Assembly (NCBI GenBank): GCA_963836075.1
Contig: CAWIIB010000010.1
Coordinates: 1 to 21,939 of the forward strand
DNA from: an uncultured Acidobacteriota bacterium
GTDB taxonomy: Bacteria; Acidobacteriota; JAQAZP01
DNA: 21,939 nucleotides
Direction of reading: 5' to 3'
Shown here piece after piece: positions 8,316-21,401 of this stretch (positions within the stretch are counted from its first letter, which is position 1; each line of letters starts with the position of its first letter). The position numbers were made by a program, and so were the translations under genes. Under the pieces are notes generated by a model that was not told the origin of the DNA, did no database searches, and was given only the letters and a program-made list of their open reading frames with translations.

Positions 8316-8471
8316 AATGGGGTCAGGCACCTATTAATCGGTTCCGATAAGCTTCCTGTGTTCGGAAATGTGGTTCCGCCACCTAAAAGAGGTGTAAAAA
8401 TAGGTGACTGTCGCTCATCTATTTTGGCCGTTTTGCTATAGCTGAGTTGATGAAAATGGGTGACTGTCACC
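8316..8471. repeat. Cluster of short related palindromes (REP-like)
   Basis: AATGGGGTCAGGCACCTATT (8316-8335), ATCGGTTCCGAT (8337-8348), AAAATAGGTGACTGTC (8397-8412), AAAATGGGTGACTGTCACC (8453-8471) in an AT-rich intergenic stretch. Confidence 0.5.
8396..8425 (-). terminator. Putative intrinsic terminator downstream of uvrA, possibly bidirectional
   Basis: AAAATAGGTGA-CTGTCGC-TCATCTATTTT inverted repeat (11 bp arms, one mismatch) with A/T tails, about 50 bp after the uvrA stop. The stem is AT-rich. Confidence 0.4.
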
Positions 8472-8474
8472 GCA

Positions 8475-14001
<5,527 letters not shown>

Positions 14002-14161
14002 TCCGCTGGTGACTCCCCGGTGACCGCCGGGGTTCCGTATCGCTTTTCGAAGTGAAAGAGCATAGCAGGATTTCCTGGCGGCGCACACCTGAACCGCTGG
14101 GTCACGGCCCGGTGTGGATGGCCCGTCACTCCTCGATCCGGGCGTCCCGGGCGGTCACGAA

Positions 14162-14196: not shown

Positions 14197-14269
14197 TCGT
14201 CCCCTAATTCATACATAAGTAGTGGCTTACGCACTGTTGCAGGGCAGGCGGCCAACATTCGGTGAATCA

Positions 14270-15085
14270 GTGAAGCAAGATCGGAAAAGACAAGGGGGAG
14301 GCGGGGGTATCTCGTCCTCGTCGGCGGCGCCGAGGACCGGACCGGAAGGAAAGAGATCCTCAGGCGGACCATGGAGCTCAATGGTGCGGAGACGGTGTCA
14401 GTCATCCCCAGTGCCAGCCGCCACCCGGTGGAACTGGTCCAGCAGTATCGCCGGGCCTTTCGTGCCCTGGGGGTCGCGCAAGGTCCACGCCCTCGATATC
14501 CGCAGCCGTGTCGAGGCCGACCGCAATCGACACGCTGTGCGGATCAGCGAATCGGACCTCATCTTCTTCACCGGCGGCGACCAGGTGCGCCTGGTGCGCC
14601 TGCTGGGAAACAGCCGGGTGATCGAGGAGACGCGGCAGAGATTGCGCCAGGGCGCCACGGTGGCCGGGAGCAGCGCCGGGGCCGCCGCGGCCAGCGATCC
14701 GATGCTCTACGACGGCCAATTGAAGGGCCTGCACAAGGGACGGGTGCGGCATCACCGGGGGTTCGGTTTTATCCGGGGGATCACCATCGACACCCACTTT
14801 GTCCAGCGCAATCGCATCAGCCGGCTGGCGCAGTTCCTGGTCAGCAGCCGCAACGACCGCGGCATCGGCCTCAGCGAGGACACCGCCCTGATCATCGGCC
14901 CGGGGGGTATCGGTGAAGTGGTGGGCCGCGGTACGGTGATCGTTCTCAATTCCCAGGACCTGCGCTTCAATAATTTCAAGGAAACCGAACTGGATACGCC
15001 CATCTCAATGGCAGGACTCCAGCTCGGCTTTCTCTCGGCCGGCATTCGATTCAACACCAGACGATGGTCCGTTGTGAAATCGTGA
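14270..15085 (+). CDS. cphB: Cyanophycinase (peptidase S51), no signal peptide, frameshifted near the 5' end
   Basis: 'GYLVLVGGAEDR', 'VIPSAS', 'FFTGGDQVRL', nucleophile 'AGSSAGAAA', 'IDTHFVQRNRISRL', 'GIGLSEDTA'. Stop TGA 15083-15085. Start (GTG ~14270) is approximate. Confidence 0.9.
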   Translation: MKQDRKRQGGGGGISSSSAAPRTGPEGKRSSGGPWSSMVRRRCQSSPVPAATRWNWSSSIAGPFVPWGSRKVHALDIRSRVEADRNRHAVRISESDLIFFTGGDQVRLVRLLGNSRVIEETRQRLRQGATVAGSSAGAAAASDPMLYDGQLKGLHKGRVRHHRGFGFIRGITIDTHFVQRNRISRLAQFLVSSRNDRGIGLSEDTALIIGPGGIGEVVGRGTVIVLNSQDLRFNNFKETELDTPISMAGLQLGFLSAGIRFNTRRWSVVKS

Positions 15086-15107: not shown

Positions 15108-16999
15108 ATGCAGGATTTCACGGTGCACTCATTCCAGAATTTTATCGGCCCCAATGCCTTCCTCGACCGGCAGGCGCTGGTGTTCAATCTCCTGCTCGAC
15201 CCGGAAGGGCCCGAGGTGGACTTTTACCGTGAAGCGGTGCTGGAGAAGTTTCCCGTCCTGGAAGCACAGTATCCCGATCGCGTGGCCGAACTGTATGCCC
15301 GGGTCCTGGTCCAGGTGATGAAGATGGACATCGATCTCTTCATCAACAACTACGCGGTGCACGGTGACGGCGGGGACGTCATGGTGGCGGTGGAATACCT
15401 GGACAACCTGATCGCCCGGAACTGCGCCGAGTTCGTCGCCGACTGGTTCCGGTCACTGAACGACAAGAGCTCGTTCGATTTCGATGCGGGTTTCCAGGAG
15501 CTGCAGGAAGAGTTCGACGCCACCGTCTTTGGCGGGCCGACGATCTATTCCCTGATCGAGGCCGGATTGAAACGGGGCATCCCGGTGCTCTACCTCTACG
15601 AGGAAAACGTCTTCATGTGGGGGTATGGTAAACGGCAGGTCCGCGGCCGGTCCACCACCTTTCACACCGACTGGATCAAGGACACCGAGTTCACCACCTT
15701 CAAGGACATGGTCAAGGACTTCCTGCTGATGTGCGGGTTCCCCACGCCCAGCGGCCGCAACACCTTCACCGCCGATGACGCGGTGGCCGAGGCCCACGTG
15801 CAGGGCTACCCGGTGGTGGTCAAACCGCTGGCCGGGCACAAGGGCCAGGGGGTGACCACCGAGATCAAGTCCGACGGCGAGGTCCGCGCCGCTTTCGGCA
15901 AGATCGTCGAGTCGTGCCGCGAGGAGGGTGTCTCCTTCGACGGGGCCATCGTGGAAAAGCAGATCTACGGCACCGACCACCGGCTGCTCACGGTCAACGG
16001 CAAGTTCGTCGCGGCCCTGGAGCGGGTGCCGGCCTACGTCGACGGGGACGGCACGAAATCGATCGAGTGAACTGATCGCCGCGGAGAACGATACCGTGGT
16101 CCGACTGGACAACGCCCGCTCGCCGCTGTGCAAGATCAAGATCGACGACGACCTGAGGGAATATCTCCACCTGCAGGATCTGTCGCTCGATTCGGTGCCC
16201 GGGAAGGGCGAGCGGGTTTTCCTGCGGCGGGTGGCCAATATTTCTGCCGGCGGCGTGTCGATCAACGTCACCGACAAGATGCATCCGAAAAATGTGAAGA
16301 TGGTGGAGGACATCGCCAAGTATCTCCAGGTGGGAATCCTGGGGATCGACGTGCTGGCCGAAGACATCGCCAAGCCGTGGGACGAGGGGAGTTTCGGCAT
16401 CATCGAGATCAACGCCGGCCCCGGCGTCTTCATGCACCTGGCCCCGGCCATCGGCGAGTCCATCGACGTCCCCGGCAAGGTGATGGAGGCCCACTTCCCG
16501 GCGCCGGGCCACGGCCGGGTGCCGATCATCGCCGGAAACTGCATTGTCAACCGAACTGGCCGCCGGGATACACAAGATCTCGAAGGCTTGCGGCCGGGCA
16601 TCGAGTTCGGCAGCCTCACCGCCGAAGGCATCCACTTCAACGGCGAATATTTCCACAAGAACAAGCATCACGATGACAACGTCAAGCTGCTGCTGCGCAA
16701 TCCGAAGCTCGAGCGCGGCCCTGTTCAGCCACACCGCGGACCAGATCGACGACTACGGGATGGTGCACCAGGGCGCCGACCTGGTGATCCTCGACGATCC
16801 CCAGGGATCGGAAGCGATCCTGCCCCGTGACCGGCTGCCTGGCGGCTGGCTGATCGAGACCGGGGATGGCCGGGCGGTGATGACCCGGGACGGGGTTGAA
16901 GTGGCCAGCCTCTCCATCGAGGAGGCCGGCGGCAAGGATGCGGCCCTGCTGGACCTGGTGGGCCGGGTGGCCGCGGAGATGCTGGAGAAATACGACTGA
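15108..16999 (+). CDS. cphA2: CphA2-like cyanophycin synthetase (beta-Asp-Arg dipeptide polymerase), about 630 aa: N domain, intact ATP-grasp, vestigial M domain
   Basis: AAGGAG RBS. Motifs I recall as CphA2-diagnostic: 'VFGGPTIYSL', 'GIPVLYLYEE...WGYGKRQVRG.STTF', 'FTTFKD', 'KPLAGHKGQGVT', 'RVANISAGGVS', 'EINAGPG.FMHL.PAIGESIDVP', 'NVKLLLRNPKL', 'GADLVILDDP'. No GTNGKT P-loop after 'RVPII'. Frameshifts at ~16068, ~16545-16580, ~16720. Confidence 0.82.
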
Positions 17000-17033: not shown

Positions 17034-18194
17034 ATGATTCTGTTCAAGGAATGCGATCTTTACGCCCCGGAGCACCTGGGCGTCAAGGACGTGCTGGTGG
17101 CCGGGGGCCGGGTGGTGGCCATGGCCGACAGCATCGGCGAACCGGCCGGGGTGGAGGTGGAGGTGATCTCCGCCCGCGGGCTGAAAATGGTTCCCGGGTT
17201 CGTTGACGGCCATGTCCATATCGCCGGCGCCGGCGGCGAGGGCGGGCCGGCCACCCGGACGCCGGAGATGCCGCTGTCCTACCTGCTGGAGGCCGGGGTC
17301 ACCACGGTGATCGGCTGCCTGGGCACCGACGGGCTGACCCGCTCGGTGGAGAGCGTGCTGATGAAGACCAAGGCCCTGCGGGCCGAAGGGGTCTCCGCCT
17401 GGATGCTCACCGGGGCCTACCAGGTGCCCACGCCCACCATTCTCGGCGACGTGGGCAAGGACATCGCCATGATCGAAGAGGTGATCGGCGCCGGGGAAAT
17501 CGCCATCTCCGACCACCGCAGCTCGGGGCCCACGGTGGACGAACTGATCAAACTGGTGGCCCACGCCCGGGTGGGCGGCATGCTGGGCGGCAAGGGCGGC
17601 ATCGTCAACTTCCACATGGGCGACGCCAAAAATCCCTTCCAGATCCTCCACGATGTGGTGGCGCGCAGCGAACTGAAATACACCCAGTTCCTGCCCACCC
17701 ACTGCAACCGCAACGACTACATCTTCGAGGACACCAAGACCTACGGCAAGACAGGCTATGTGGACATCACCGCCAGTTCCTGGCCCTTCTTTCCCGAGTA
17801 CGAGACCAAGCCCTCCAAGGCCATCGTCCAGCTGCTGGCCGCCGGCGTTCCGCTGGAGCACATCACCATGACCTCGGACGGCTGCGGCTCACTGCCCGAT
17901 TTCGACGAGCAGGGCAACCTGGTCAAGCTGGAGATGGGCAAACCGAAGTCGGTGCTCGACGAACTGCGGGACACGGTGCTCGAGGAAAAGCTGGAGCTGG
18001 ACAAGGCGGTCCAGGTGGTGAGCAGCAACCCGGCGAGGATCTTCAAGCTGCCGGGCAAGGGCGTGGTTGCCCCCGGCGCCGATGCCGACCTGGTGCTGCT
18101 GGACGGGGAGTTCCGTGTCCACCACATGGTGGCCCGTGGCCAGCTGATGGTGCGCGAGGCCGTTCCGTTGAAAAAGGGCAGCTACGAAGTCTGA
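17034..18194 (+). CDS. iadA: Isoaspartyl dipeptidase (beta-aspartyl peptidase, amidohydrolase family), 386 aa, intact ORF
   Basis: 'PGFVDGHVHIAGAGGEGGPATRTPE', 'GVTTVIGCLGTDG', 'GAYQVP', 'GEIAISDHRSS', 'FHMGD', 'PTHCNRN', 'TSDGCGSLP', 'GADADLV'. GGAGG RBS. Confidence 0.95.
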   Translation: MILFKECDLYAPEHLGVKDVLVAGGRVVAMADSIGEPAGVEVEVISARGLKMVPGFVDGHVHIAGAGGEGGPATRTPEMPLSYLLEAGVTTVIGCLGTDGLTRSVESVLMKTKALRAEGVSAWMLTGAYQVPTPTILGDVGKDIAMIEEVIGAGEIAISDHRSSGPTVDELIKLVAHARVGGMLGGKGGIVNFHMGDAKNPFQILHDVVARSELKYTQFLPTHCNRNDYIFEDTKTYGKTGYVDITASSWPFFPEYETKPSKAIVQLLAAGVPLEHITMTSDGCGSLPDFDEQGNLVKLEMGKPKSVLDELRDTVLEEKLELDKAVQVVSSNPARIFKLPGKGVVAPGADADLVLLDGEFRVHHMVARGQLMVREAVPLKKGSYEV

Positions 18195-18210: not shown

Positions 18211-20408
18211 GTGAAAGAGGACCAGCCCCAGTGCCGCCTCGAAGAGGGCCCGCTCAAGGCCCTCGGCATCAAGGTGCTCCAGGGGCCCAACTACTTCAGC
18301 GCCGGGCCGGTGATCGCCCTGCGTCTGGACCTGGGCGCGTACGACGAAGTCTTCACCAACGACATCCCCGGGTTTGGCGAGCGGCTCCGCACACTGCTCC
18401 CTTCGCTGCAGAGCCACCACTGCTCGGTGGGGCAGCCGGGCGGGTTTCTGTTGCGGGTCTCCGAGGGAACGCTGCTGGGCCATGTCACCGAGCACGTGGC
18501 CATCGAGCTGCAGACCCTGGCCGGGATGGACGCGGGGTACGGCAAGACACGCAGCACCGCCACCCAGGGGGTCTACAACGTCATTTTCCGCTTTCTCGAC
18601 GAGGAGGTGGGGCTCTACACCGCCCGTGCGGCGCTCAACCTGGTCAATGCCCTGCTCGAGGAGTGTCCGTTCGAGGTCGGGCCGGTGGTCGGTGACCTGG
18701 TGCGCATCCGCGAGGACCGGATGTTCGGCCCCAGCACCGGGGCCGTGGTGGAGCGAGGCCGAGGAACGGAATATCCCATGGTACCGGTTGGACCGCTACA
18801 ATCTGGTTCAGCTGGGGACCGGCAAGTACCAGAAACGGATCCGGGCCACCGTCACGTCGGACACCAGCCTGCTGGCCGTGGAAACCGCTGACGACAAATA
18901 CCTGACCAACAGCATGCTCGCCGACGCCGGCGTCCCGGTTCCGCCCACGGTGCGGGCATCGCACGCCGCCCCCGTGGAAGCCTTTCGCCGGGAACAGGAT
19001 CTGCCGTTGGTGGTCAAGCCGTGCACCGGACACCTGGGGCGGGGCATCACCCTCGGCCCCGCCACGGCCGAAGCGGTTGAAGAGGCCGTGGCCCGGGCCC
19101 TGCAGTTCGACGACTCGGTGATCGCCCAACCGCTGGTGGCGGGGGAGAGCTTCAGGCTGCTGGTGATCGACGGCCGGTTCGTGGCCGCGGCCCGGCTGGT
19201 CCCCCCGGTGGTCACCGGAGACGGACGGCAGACGGTGCAGCAGCTCGTGGCCGGCCTGAACAACGATCCGGACCGCGGGGTGGGCGACAAATCAAAGCTG
19301 AGCCTGGTGGAACTTGACGAGGAGACCGGGCGGATCCTGGAACTGAACGGACTCACCGCGACGTCGGTGTTGCCTGCCGGTCAGATCGCTGGCCCTCAAG
19401 GTTTCGGGCAACCTGCGTCTGGGCGGGGCCAGCCACGATGTCACCGACGGAGGTCCACCCGATGAACCGCCTGCTGGTGGAACGGGCGGCCCGGGCCCTG
19501 GGGCTGGACGCCGCCGGCGTGGACGTGGTGGCCCCTCTCTGGCCGAGTCGATGCTCGACACCGGTGGCGTGGTCATCGAGGTGGGGGCGGCCCCCGACTT
19601 CCGTCTGCACCTCAACCCGGTTTCGGGTTCGCCGCAGGATGTGGTCGCCCCCTTCCTCTCCATGCTCTTTCCGGAAGGGCGCCACAACCGGGTGCCGGTG
19701 GTGGCGGTTACCGGCACCGACGGCAAGACCACCGCCACCGACATTCTGCACCACTGTCTTTCCCGTACCGGCTACCGGGTGGGCCGCGCCACCTCCCGGG
19801 GGCTGATGGTGGGGGAGGAGGTGCTGATCAGGGGTGAGATGACCGGGTTCGAGAGCGCGGCCATGACCCTGCGCGACCCCACCATCGACTGCGCCCTGCT
19901 CGAGGTCCCGCTGGAGACGATCCTCGACCGCGGCCTGGGCTACCGTTTCGCCGATATCGCCGTGGTGCTCAACATCCGTGACGAAGGGCTGCTCTACGAC
20001 GAAGCGGCAATCATGGAGGACATCGCCTACGCCCATGCGGTGGTGGCCGAACAGGTCTACGAGGACGGCTATACCGTGCTCAACGCCGACGACCAGTTGA
20101 TCCTCGAGATGCGGGAACGGCTGCACAGCACGGTGGTGCTTTTTTCGCGCGATCCCGAGAACCCGGCGCTGGTGGAGCTGGCGGCCGCCGGCGGGCGGGG
20201 GGTCACGGTTGAGGAGGGAAAACTGGTGATGATCGACCGTGGCGAGCGTGTGGAACTGGCCGCGCTGGATGCCATCCCCCTGCTGGCCGGTGAGGGCGGG
20301 GCCGTATACCTGGACACCGTGCTGGCCGCGGCGGCGGCGCTCTACTGCTTCGGCGCCTCCGTCGACCGGATCACCGAAACCCTGCAGGGGTTCAATGAAG
20401 GAAAGTAG
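18211..20408 (+). CDS. cphA: CphA1-derived protein, about 730 aa: intact N-domain metallopeptidase motif, degenerate ATP-grasp and Mur-ligase core, no C-terminal lid
   Basis: AAGGAG RBS and GTG start; 'GPNYFS', 'HHCSVGQPGGFLLRVSEGTLLGHVTEHVAIELQTLAGM', 'GPSTGAVV', 'VQLGTGKYQKRIRAT', 'VAVTGTDGKTT', 'VLNADD'. Stops at 'LQGFNEGK*' where canonical CphA1 continues into PGR and the lid domain. Frameshifts ~18750, ~19390, ~19450, ~19535. Confidence 0.88.
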
Positions 20409-20431
20409 GGACAGTTACTACCTTTTTCCGT

Positions 20432-20674
20432 TGTCATCGCGAGGAGTCGGCGCAGCCGACGACGCGGCGATCTCCTCGGATGTTCTTTCGATTCATTGAG
20501 ACTGCCACGTCGCCGGCTCCGCGGGCTCCTCGCAGTGACAGTGAGGACAATGCTGTTCCTTTGCCTGACCTCCCCGGCCCCCGCGGGTCGGTGGCTCGCA
20601 ATGACAGTGAGAGGGCAGTTGTTCCTTTGCCTGACTTCCCGTGGCCCCCGAGGGTCGGTGGCTCGCAATGACAG
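20432..20674. repeat. REP-like palindromic element followed by 66-67 bp tandem units, between convergent genes
   Basis: TGTCATCGCGAGGAG (20432-20446) pairs with CTCCTCGCAGTGACA (20526-20540, two mismatches); CTCGCA(G/A)TGACAG recurs at 20529, 20595, 20662; both spacers share TGTTCCTTTGCCTGAC and GGCCCCCG(C/A)GGGTCGGTGG. Confidence 0.85.
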
Positions 20675-20678
20675 GGGG

Positions 20679-21401
20679 CTACACCCGCCCGAACAACTTC
20701 AAGCACCCGCAGTTTGAACACCACCCAGATCGACTCCCAGATGATCGACTTCGAGATCTTCGACTGCCCTGAACGCCGTTCCTGGAAAATGATGGGTACC
20801 TCTCCCAGGCTGAAACCCTTTCTCCAGGCGAGGAAGCTCATCTCGATCAGGAACACGTATCCATTGGAGCGGATCCCTGCCAGGTCGATGGCTTCCAGCA
20901 CCTCGCGTCGATAGCAGCGGTAGCCGCTGGTGATGTCTTTCAGCGGCAGCCCGGTGACCAGGCGTGCGTAGAGATTGGCCCAGGTGCTGAGGATCAGGCG
21001 CCGCAGGGGCCAGTCCAGCACCCGGACCCCGCCGATGTAGCGGGATCCCTGGACCACGTCGAACCGATTGGAAGCCTCAACCAGCTTCGGGATTTCCCGC
21101 GGGTCGTGGGAGAAGTCGGCGTCCATGCCGACGATGGTCCGGTATCCCTGCTCCAGGGCAAAGGTGAACCCGTGCCACATAGGCCGTGCCCAGGCCCCTC
21201 TGGTCCATCCGGTGGATCAGGTGAATCCGGCTGTCTTTCCGCGGTCCGGGATTCCACCAGTTCCCAGGTGCGGTCCGGGGAATCGTCATCCACCACCAGC
21301 AGATCCACCTCGGGTGCGTGGACGAAGATCTCATCGATCATCCGACCGATGTTTTCCCGTTCTTCGTAGGTGGGAATCACCACCAGGGTGCTTTTGGACA
21401 T
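20679..21401 (-). CDS. GT2 polyprenol monophosphomannose synthase (Ppm1/DPM1-like), about 240 aa, frameshifted
   Basis: GGAG RBS; 'TLVVIPTYEERENI', 'LVVDDDSPDRT', 'GLGTAY', 'MDADFSHDP', 'DVVQGSRYIGG', 'DITSGYRCYRREVLE', 'SNGYVF.IEM', 'EVPIIFQERRSGQSKIS'. Likely true stop is TAG at 20679-20681 after a one-base shift. Confidence 0.88.

Follow-up and report, generated by a model that had tools for sequence, protein, structure and literature searches.

The closest described relatives of the gene analysed here are the cyanophycin synthetases CphA1 and CphA2. CphA1 (Synechocystis UTEX2470 7lg5, Trichodesmium 7wac, 7lgn, 7lgm) combines an N domain, a G (ATP-grasp) domain and an M (Mur-ligase) domain composed of Mcore and Mlid, and the primer site of the N domain is known only within working CphA1s (PMC9262961). 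SuCphA1 engineered to lack G and M activity (H267A, D585A/H586A), or its isolated N domain, gives primer independence in trans (PMC9262961). CphA2 (7ta5, 8fxh) has been described as cyanobacterial (PMC10273328, PMC10206079), and its assays in print use a synthetic primer (PMC10273328 Methods). Here, we describe cphX, a CphA1-derived gene at positions 18211-20408 (+) of the window, i.e., the whole of the 21,939-nucleotide contig CAWIIB010000010.1 (C10). The contig belongs to a 6.2-Mb Acidobacteriota metagenome-assembled genome of 10 contigs (GCA_963836075.1, in the following G000; completeness 94.7%, reported contamination 4.6%). On balance, sequence comparison and genomic context lead us to favour CphX as an N-domain endo-cyanophycinase that may supply chain ends or primers to CphA2.

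CphX shares with CphA1 the N-G-Mcore order (35-47% identity over ~710 residues) and the complete Cx19HxxEH N-site including its second shell, and CphA1 is its best match in the Protein Data Bank. It differs from CphA1 in having no Mlid, glutamate and glycine in place of D585/H586, an altered G site, a score below the TIGR02068 cut-off and a position in a separate clade. The engineered SuCphA1 variants appear to have the same layout, with altered G and M sites and an intact N site (PMC9262961). However, these variants were made in the laboratory from a functional enzyme, whereas CphX is a natural, selected gene that is coupled to CphA2 and not to a primer-dependent CphA1. CphA2 likewise has a truncated, inactive M domain without a lid, belongs to a similar length class and is encoded in the same operon. 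Its G site is fully conserved and HxxEH is missing, while CphX shows the reverse.

A prior non-cyanobacterial case was reported in 2017 from Bacillus horikoshii 20a, which has three tandem CphAs without Arg-site residues (PMC5532821). The Asp-site residues are reported to be present, and the paper, which predates the discovery of the N-site, proposes no role for these proteins and compares them with "CphA2/CphA2'" of Fuser & Steinbuchel 2007 (PMC5532821). Beyond this case, the literature covered (Fuser & Steinbuchel 2007, the CphA2 crystal-structure and first CphA1 structure papers and all supplements being outside its scope) mentions no natural N-only CphA1 derivative, no "CphA3" and no non-cyanobacterial CphA2 operon.

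Domains and catalytic sites of CphX

The window copy of cphX was compared with its intact orthologue P0001 (729 amino acids, L001:9821-12010), which lies in the locus L001 on contig C9 of the same bin. Residues are numbered as in SuCphA1 throughout, and the gene is organised as follows.

18211-20408, + strand: cphX, a putative lidless, CphA1-derived pseudo-synthetase; five frame pieces in the window, intact in P0001
18211-18726, + strand: N domain (Cyanophycin_syn); Pfam PF18921, E 5e-44 on P0001
18415-18495, + strand: N-site HxC-x19-HxxEH (H57, C59 ... H79, E82, H83); codon positions verified
18727-19682, + strand: G (ATP-grasp) domain, carrying H267L, E300Q, R323L, S396R, N452G and G456D
19683-20405, + strand: Mcore (Mur-ligase middle domain), carrying N497D, R561L and D585E/H586G; no Mlid after it

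The inverzincin-like N-site is complete. The metal triad C59/H79/H83 and the general base E82 are all present (C71, H91, E94 and H95 in P0001), with their codons at 18421 (Cys), 18481 (His), 18490 (Glu) and 18493 (His), exactly where an earlier, sequence-only reading of the window had placed them. The second-shell and substrate residues H57, S60, F67, R70, E87, T101 and Y110 as well as E607 of the M domain are present too.

The G and M domains show the opposite picture. Alignment to the solved CphA1 chains 7lg5, 7wac, 7lgn and 7lgm and to a canonical cyanobacterial CphA1 locus, the numbering of which equals that of SuCphA1/TeCphA1, bears out the altered ATP-grasp motifs listed in the earlier reading: KPCTGHLGRG at 19016-19045, ARLVPP at 19190-19207, GNLRLGG at 19407-19427 and EVGAAPDFRLH at 19578-19610. 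The changes in the G domain comprise D307S/H308F in addition to those given above, and K261, R309, N394, E450 and R458 are retained. By analogy with ATP-grasp enzymes in general, we take E450 and N452 to be the Mg ligands of the G site. Among the Mur-ligase motifs, the replacement of ETARGG by EVPLET (19902-19919; R561L/V, leucine in the window) and of DHLG by EGLL (from 19983; D585E/H586G) was read correctly. The change from GTNGKT to GTDGKT (19713-19730) replaces N497 but leaves the catalytic K499 and T500 in place.

Several of these positions have been mutated in CphA1. SuCphA1 has been inactivated by H267A and by D585A/H586A (PMC9262961). Alanine mutants at H267, R323, N394, R458 and K499 and the mutant S396W impair TeCphA1 or SuCphA1, and deletion of Mlid strongly lowers CphA1 activity (PMC9427784). 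Several of the G and M changes of CphX thus fall on positions at which published mutation inactivates or impairs CphA1, in keeping with the eroded ligase sites of the earlier reading. Based on these mutants and on the pattern of decay, we infer that neither site ligates any longer.

The missing lid is real: CphX ends at about position 724, where Mlid would start, with the stop codon TAG at 20406-20408. Mur_ligase_C (PF02875), which is present in canonical CphA1 and in lid-bearing relatives of CphX, has no match in P0001, and a lid query found none in the C10 and C9 loci. On P0001, Pfam returns PF18921, RimK/ATP-grasp and Mur_ligase_M in the N-G-Mcore order. The extent of the RimK match was rejected as a gauge of G-domain erosion, since it covers the same profile half in canonical CphA1. 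The NCBIfam cyanophycin-synthetase equivalog TIGR02068 gives 773.2 bits, below its cut-off of 850, over profile positions 4-713 of 862.

Derivation from CphA1, as proposed earlier, is supported by a solved CphA1 being the best match of all three pieces of CphX searched (E 1e-40 to 1e-54); against CphA2, pieces reach E 1.8e-22 and 1.9e-7, compared with 1e-47 to 1e-54 against CphA1. The term "CphA1 paralogue" holds in part: no canonical CphA1 was found in G000, so within this genome CphX is a paralogue of CphA2 only. The intact orthologues on C9 and in the sister genomes G001 and G002 share the substitutions and the stop position and have no internal stops. Hence, the substitutions are not noise. 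As the earlier reading held, they are in frame and distinct from the indels, although the frame of the window copy itself is broken by four 1-nt shifts. The intact copies neither restore the motifs nor read through into a lid.

The CphX family and its association with CphA2

To place CphX, 305 CphA1-like sequences were gathered from the best matches of two database searches with P0001 and from open reading frames (ORFs) of fetched loci, which makes for a non-uniform sample; 120 sequences were aligned by mafft with fast settings. A midpoint-rooted tree separates a canonical clade I (n = 131) from a clade II (n = 174) that contains the gene of the window and to which we apply the label CphX. In a 69-row IQ-TREE tree rooted by six CphA2 sequences, clade II occupies one side of a branch with an SH-aLRT of 99, CphX groups with CphA1 and away from CphA2, and clade I is not one clade. 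CphX is one of many proteins in a separate, monophyletic clade derived from CphA1, not an isolated case of erosion.

The two clades differ in where they are conserved. The complete N motif (C, H, E, H) is found in 172/174 clade II but 105/131 clade I sequences, the latter being close to a published 83% (PMC9262961). E607 is kept in 173/174 vs. 81/131, and each second-shell or substrate residue of the N-site in at least 170 of the 174 members of clade II. There, E82, the catalytic base, varies no more than the metal ligands do (172/174). In the G pocket, clade II has L323 (140/174), K/R396 (145/174), D456 (167/174) and Q300 (158/174), whereas clade I has R323 (116/131), S396 (115/131), G456 (121/131) and E300 (129/131). 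The reported change from AERIPA to ARLVPP is therefore sound as a loss of R323, but AERIPA itself is not universal, as two solved CphA1s have R-R. R309 (171/174 and 128/131) and R458 (165/174 and 116/131) are kept in both clades and, with E215, form a conserved set of cyanophycin-binding residues. These alignments give clade I the usual residues at the G and M sites, and clade II a near-invariant N-site with E607 and a G pocket with a fixed alternative set. The expectation that homologues would conserve the N-site and vary in the G and M sites is borne out for clade II. The region around the tetramer-interface position W672 is variable in clades I and II alike.

Clade II comprises 98 proteins with and 76 without a lid, and the lid state has switched at least 18 times on its tree. 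Positions 585-586 are DH in 68/98 lid-bearing but 0/76 lidless members, R561 is kept in 72/98 vs. 3/76, and E450 and N452 are both kept in 81/98 vs. 42/76. Most lidless ORFs derived from loci (19/22) end at a true stop codon, and 3/22 are cut by the end of a contig. In the 18-leaf lidless subclade with the gene of the window, position 452 is G, N, S or A (8, 5, 4 and 1 sequences), and no member has DH at 585-586; within the genus, N452G has gone to fixation.

The lid-bearing members (e.g., L023:9919-12604, L036:9931-12610) join M catalytic residues, including the DH pair in the 68 proteins above, to the rewired G pocket with L323, K/R396, D456 and Q300. Their genomes also encode CphA2, and many of these show no canonical CphA1. 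The two proteins might form a split synthetase in which CphA2 performs the G step and lid-bearing CphX the M step. In a further Acidobacteriota genome, an ORF just downstream of canonical CphA1 (G004:C1:1627638-1628318, in an open frame of 572 amino acids) resembles CphX in Mcore alone (36% identity, residues 491-718).

Relatives encoded beside cphA2 form a series of reductions. CphX of Ignavibacteria and Kapaibacteria (~700 amino acids) lacks the P-loop stretch of the G domain. In SAR324 (L062:11660-13196 (+), 512 amino acids), the N domain is fused to a dead Mcore and the G domain is gone, and in Desulfobacterales (L064:10675-12136 (+), 487 amino acids) the whole G domain is deleted, leaving the N domain and a dead Mcore. 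All reduced forms retain HxC...HxxEH and the E607 equivalent. In SuCphA1, the isolated N domain is insoluble unless an M-contacting loop is mutated, and the M residues S603 and E607 contact the N-site substrate (PMC9262961). The forms made of N domain and Mcore fit both observations. As read from these sequences, the series singles out the N-site as what selection preserves and Mcore as the support that this site needs.

In the window, cphX is preceded by three genes on the same strand:

14222-15085, + strand: cphB-like cyanophycinase; window copy with a frameshifted 5' end, intact on C9 (L001:5879-6691)
15108-16996, + strand: cphA2 (cyanophycin synthetase 2); three frame pieces in the window (15108-16070, 16045-16716, 16712-16996), intact on C9 (629 amino acids, L001:6714-8603)
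17034-18194, + strand: iadA, isoaspartyl (beta-aspartyl) dipeptidase; intact ORF of 386 amino acids

On C9, cphB, cphA2, iadA and cphX follow one another on the same strand, 17-39 nt apart; counts in a promoter and terminator scan of the operon were at chance level. The C9 orthologues of cphB (TIGR02069, 197.5 bits vs. a cut-off of 126.6; also a Pfam Peptidase_S51 match) and iadA (TIGR01975, 460.5 bits vs. 331) score above the NCBIfam cut-offs. The neighbour of cphX is a true CphA2 (phmmer E 1.4e-141 to 7ta5 and 4.4e-129 to 8fxh; the C9-locus protein is ~50% identical to solved cyanobacterial CphA2). G-site residues are invariant across 16 CphA2 partners, none of which (0/16) has HxxEH in its N domain, as the sequence-only reading had said of this neighbour.

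The association with CphA2 extends far beyond this genus. Among 52 loci taken from one-genome-per-species contigs, cphA2 lies in the same locus in 23 of the 43 loci outside clade I but in none of the 9 clade I loci; the latter carry cphB, several also iadA, without CphA2. The commonest order at the cphA2-bearing loci is cphB-cphA2-iadA-cphX, and iadA is directly upstream of cphX in most phyla. The 23 loci stem from Acidobacteriota, Phycisphaerales, Muiribacteriota, Cloacimonadota, Sumerlaeota, Negativicutes, Thermoanaerobaculia, Desulfobacterales, Ignavibacteria, Kapaibacteria and SAR324. For the 20 loci without adjacent cphA2, ten genomes were searched and all ten encode a CphA2 orthologue elsewhere (50-58% identity), so that no CphX genome among those tested proved to be without CphA2; whole-genome searches of five clade I genomes found none. 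Of 201 evenly sampled Acidobacteriota genomes, 6 encode a CphA2 orthologue, each time adjoining a clade II gene, as against 0 of the 21 with canonical CphA1 only. As kin are not independent, all these counts are used descriptively. Overall, true CphA2 orthologues are present in Acidobacteriota and at least ten other non-cyanobacterial groups, including Bacteroidales. Two Bacteroidales genomes, G042 (L044) and G210 (L041), have two CphA2 each (53-55% identity to the query) and one clade II CphX.

Canonical CphA1 was not found in most of these genomes. Four of the 21 clade II CphX genomes examined also have a canonical-type CphA1 (G035, G049, G055, G207). In the other 17, the queries used found none, the completeness of locus-derived genomes being unreported. 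In the 94.7% complete G000, canonical and lid-only queries returned nothing beyond the C9 and C10 loci.

Possible roles of CphX

The gene is kept by selection, as the earlier reading had assumed. Among four cphX orthologues (six pairs), the ratio of non-synonymous to synonymous substitution rates (dN/dS) is 0.13-0.25 overall and 0.09-0.26 when the N, G and M domains are taken separately (G domain, 0.12-0.26). These low values in all three domains show that the gene is genuine and under selection, and no pseudogene. Between C9 and G002, dN/dS is 0.215 for CphX, 0.126 for CphA2, 0.088 for IadA and 0.164 for CphB, and 13 lidless relatives have 72/172 invariant columns in the N, 94/318 in the G and 46/239 in the M domain. 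The gene is maintained by purifying selection that is somewhat relaxed compared with the operon partners and tightest in the N domain.

In the mechanism we favour, CphX would be a CphA1 descendant whose G and M sites no longer polymerise, and the remaining protein would act as a soluble, cyanophycin-binding scaffold for the Zn-metallopeptidase-like site of the N domain. By homology to SuCphA1, this site may cut cyanophycin chains internally. Internal cuts would multiply the chain ends, which CphA2 would extend with beta-Asp-Arg and CphB would degrade. Following the engineered precedent, CphA2, which is the only polymerase found in G000 and lacks HxxEH, would take its primers from CphX. At a guess, K/R396 and D456 might fill the pocket for the incoming Asp, with E215, R309 and R458 still holding the chain end.

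Several observations weigh against this mechanism. The published N-site activity is slow, with a rate far below that of CphB (PMC9262961 Discussion). The substrate-contact residue E90 of SuCphA1 is Thr in CphX, a position that is also variable in clade I. No source of beta-Asp-Arg is evident in this genome, in which no CphA1 was found, and the physiological need for a primer is itself presumed. Since K499, T500 and E558 are retained, CphX may bind nucleotide at the P-loop region of the M domain. G and Mcore are under purifying selection nearly as strong as that on the N domain, and the G replacements E300Q, R323L, S396K/R and G456D are fixed clade-wide with K261, R309 and R458 kept, which argues for a retained function of the G domain, binding or other. 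Finally, the non-independence of kin means that the co-occurrence counts overstate the support.

Alternatively, CphX might be a catabolic endo-cyanophycinase that speeds degradation by giving the exo-acting CphB, and after it IadA, more chain ends to work on, without priming CphA2. Two of its three operon partners (cphB, iadA) are catabolic, iadA precedes it directly in most phyla and the N-site evidence applies equally. However, CphX co-occurs with CphA2, while clade I loci have cphB, and in several cases iadA, without CphA2; the slow N-site rate relative to CphB speaks against a catabolic role as well. We therefore regard this alternative as unlikely.

Slightly less likely still is a non-catalytic subunit, in which CphX would form a hetero-oligomer with CphA2 as scaffold, tether or regulator and the N motif would serve metal-dependent folding or cyanophycin binding. 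The strict genomic coupling to CphA2 and the conserved E215, R309 and R458 agree with such a role, as does the retention of the G and Mcore folds, which build the oligomer interfaces of CphA1 and CphA2 (PMC9427784, PMC10273328). Yet a structural site would not need a base as invariant as the metal ligands, and most of the presumed interface is gone from the forms reduced to N domain and Mcore.

It is also improbable that the G domain remains catalytic and that its rewired pocket serves another substrate or chemistry, in which case "pseudo-synthetase" would be the wrong term. The coherent replacements at 323, 396, 456 and 300, the retention of K261, R309, R458 and mostly E450, and the low dN/dS of the G domain are what such an enzyme would show. 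Against this, N452G is fixed in the genus and positions 450 and 452 vary freely in sister lidless lineages, alanine mutants at R323 and H267 are impaired (PMC9427784), and relatives drop the P-loop or the entire G domain and yet keep the operon.

A pseudogene or an assembly artefact has to be weighed as well, because both catalytic motifs are lost and cphX is broken in the window into five frame pieces (18211-18753, 18755-19387, 19389-19448, 19450-19533, 19536-20405) by four 1-nt shifts, three +1 and one -1:

18754, + strand: frameshift 1, extra base (+1) in the window
19388, + strand: frameshift 2, extra base (+1); contigs of two short-read runs omit one base at 19384/19387
19449, + strand: frameshift 3, extra base (+1); contigs of two short-read runs omit one base at 19447
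19532-19535, + strand: frameshift 4, one base short (-1) within a run of C; one short-read contig inserts a base after 19532

Four sequencing runs contain this DNA, each at a small share (0.06-0.08), and no RNA run is among them; they served for the indel check. Independent short-read contigs from three unrelated sediment metagenomes cover three of the four sites, 18754 being outside their coverage, and carry the exact compensating indel at all three. Moreover, most genes of C10 are broken by 1-base indels. The 21.9-kb contig (GC content 0.669 vs. 0.64) is collinear end to end with C9:3167782-3189282 at 79-84% nucleotide identity, and hundreds of 1-base gaps are scattered along the entire alignment. 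The two cphX copies differ by 204 synonymous and 148 non-synonymous changes, and the C10 copy is nearest to the orthologue in the sister genome G001 (dN 0.045, dS 0.36). Because of this excess of synonymous differences and the proximity to G001, C10 is a homeologous, co-binned contig of a related population with indel noise, not a second locus of one cell, and it probably accounts for some of the 4.6% contamination reported. With intact orthologues on C9 and in G001 and G002, three corrected frameshift sites, contig-wide indels and mostly synonymous differences between the copies, the pseudogene reading of the gene family is refuted, and the chance that decay or assembly error explains CphX is negligible.

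Two further features flank the operon. A dispersed intergenic repeat with two tandem copies of a ~66-nt unit (20431-20680, no strand assigned) lies outside the gene, between cphX and a convergent glycosyltransferase gene. Copies with 77-95% identity occur on contigs C1, C2, C5 and C9, and the repeat is missing at the orthologous C9 site, where the gap between the two convergent genes is 29 nt. Upstream of the operon, an ORF of 1844 amino acids encodes two tandem UvrA-like units (window ~8400-14088 (-), L001:137-5671 (-)); frameshifts break up the copy in the window.

CphX and CphA2 outside cyanobacteria

CphA2 extends beyond cyanobacteria to Acidobacteriota, Phycisphaerales, Bacteroidales, Cloacimonadota, Ignavibacteria, SAR324 and others. 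That most CphX genomes show no CphA1 raises the testable question of where their beta-Asp-Arg comes from; as a speculation, CphA2 could store beta-Asp-Arg that is scavenged. Tentatively, and with less confidence than in the endo-cyanophycinase itself, we envisage a widespread CphA1-free system outside cyanobacteria, in which CphA2 would be the sole polymerase, perhaps of scavenged beta-Asp-Arg, and CphX a dedicated primer-making pseudo-synthetase with the N-domain endo-cyanophycinase as its sole catalytic part, with a possible split synthetase in lineages with a live M site.

Primer supply limits the yield of heterologous cyanophycin (PMC9262961), and the natural minimal forms of CphX are candidate soluble, primer-generating helpers for such production. 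For the family itself, CphX would mean that evolution has repeated the published laboratory construct with inactive G and M sites and an active N-site, down to minimal forms of N domain and Mcore, and has coupled it to CphA2.

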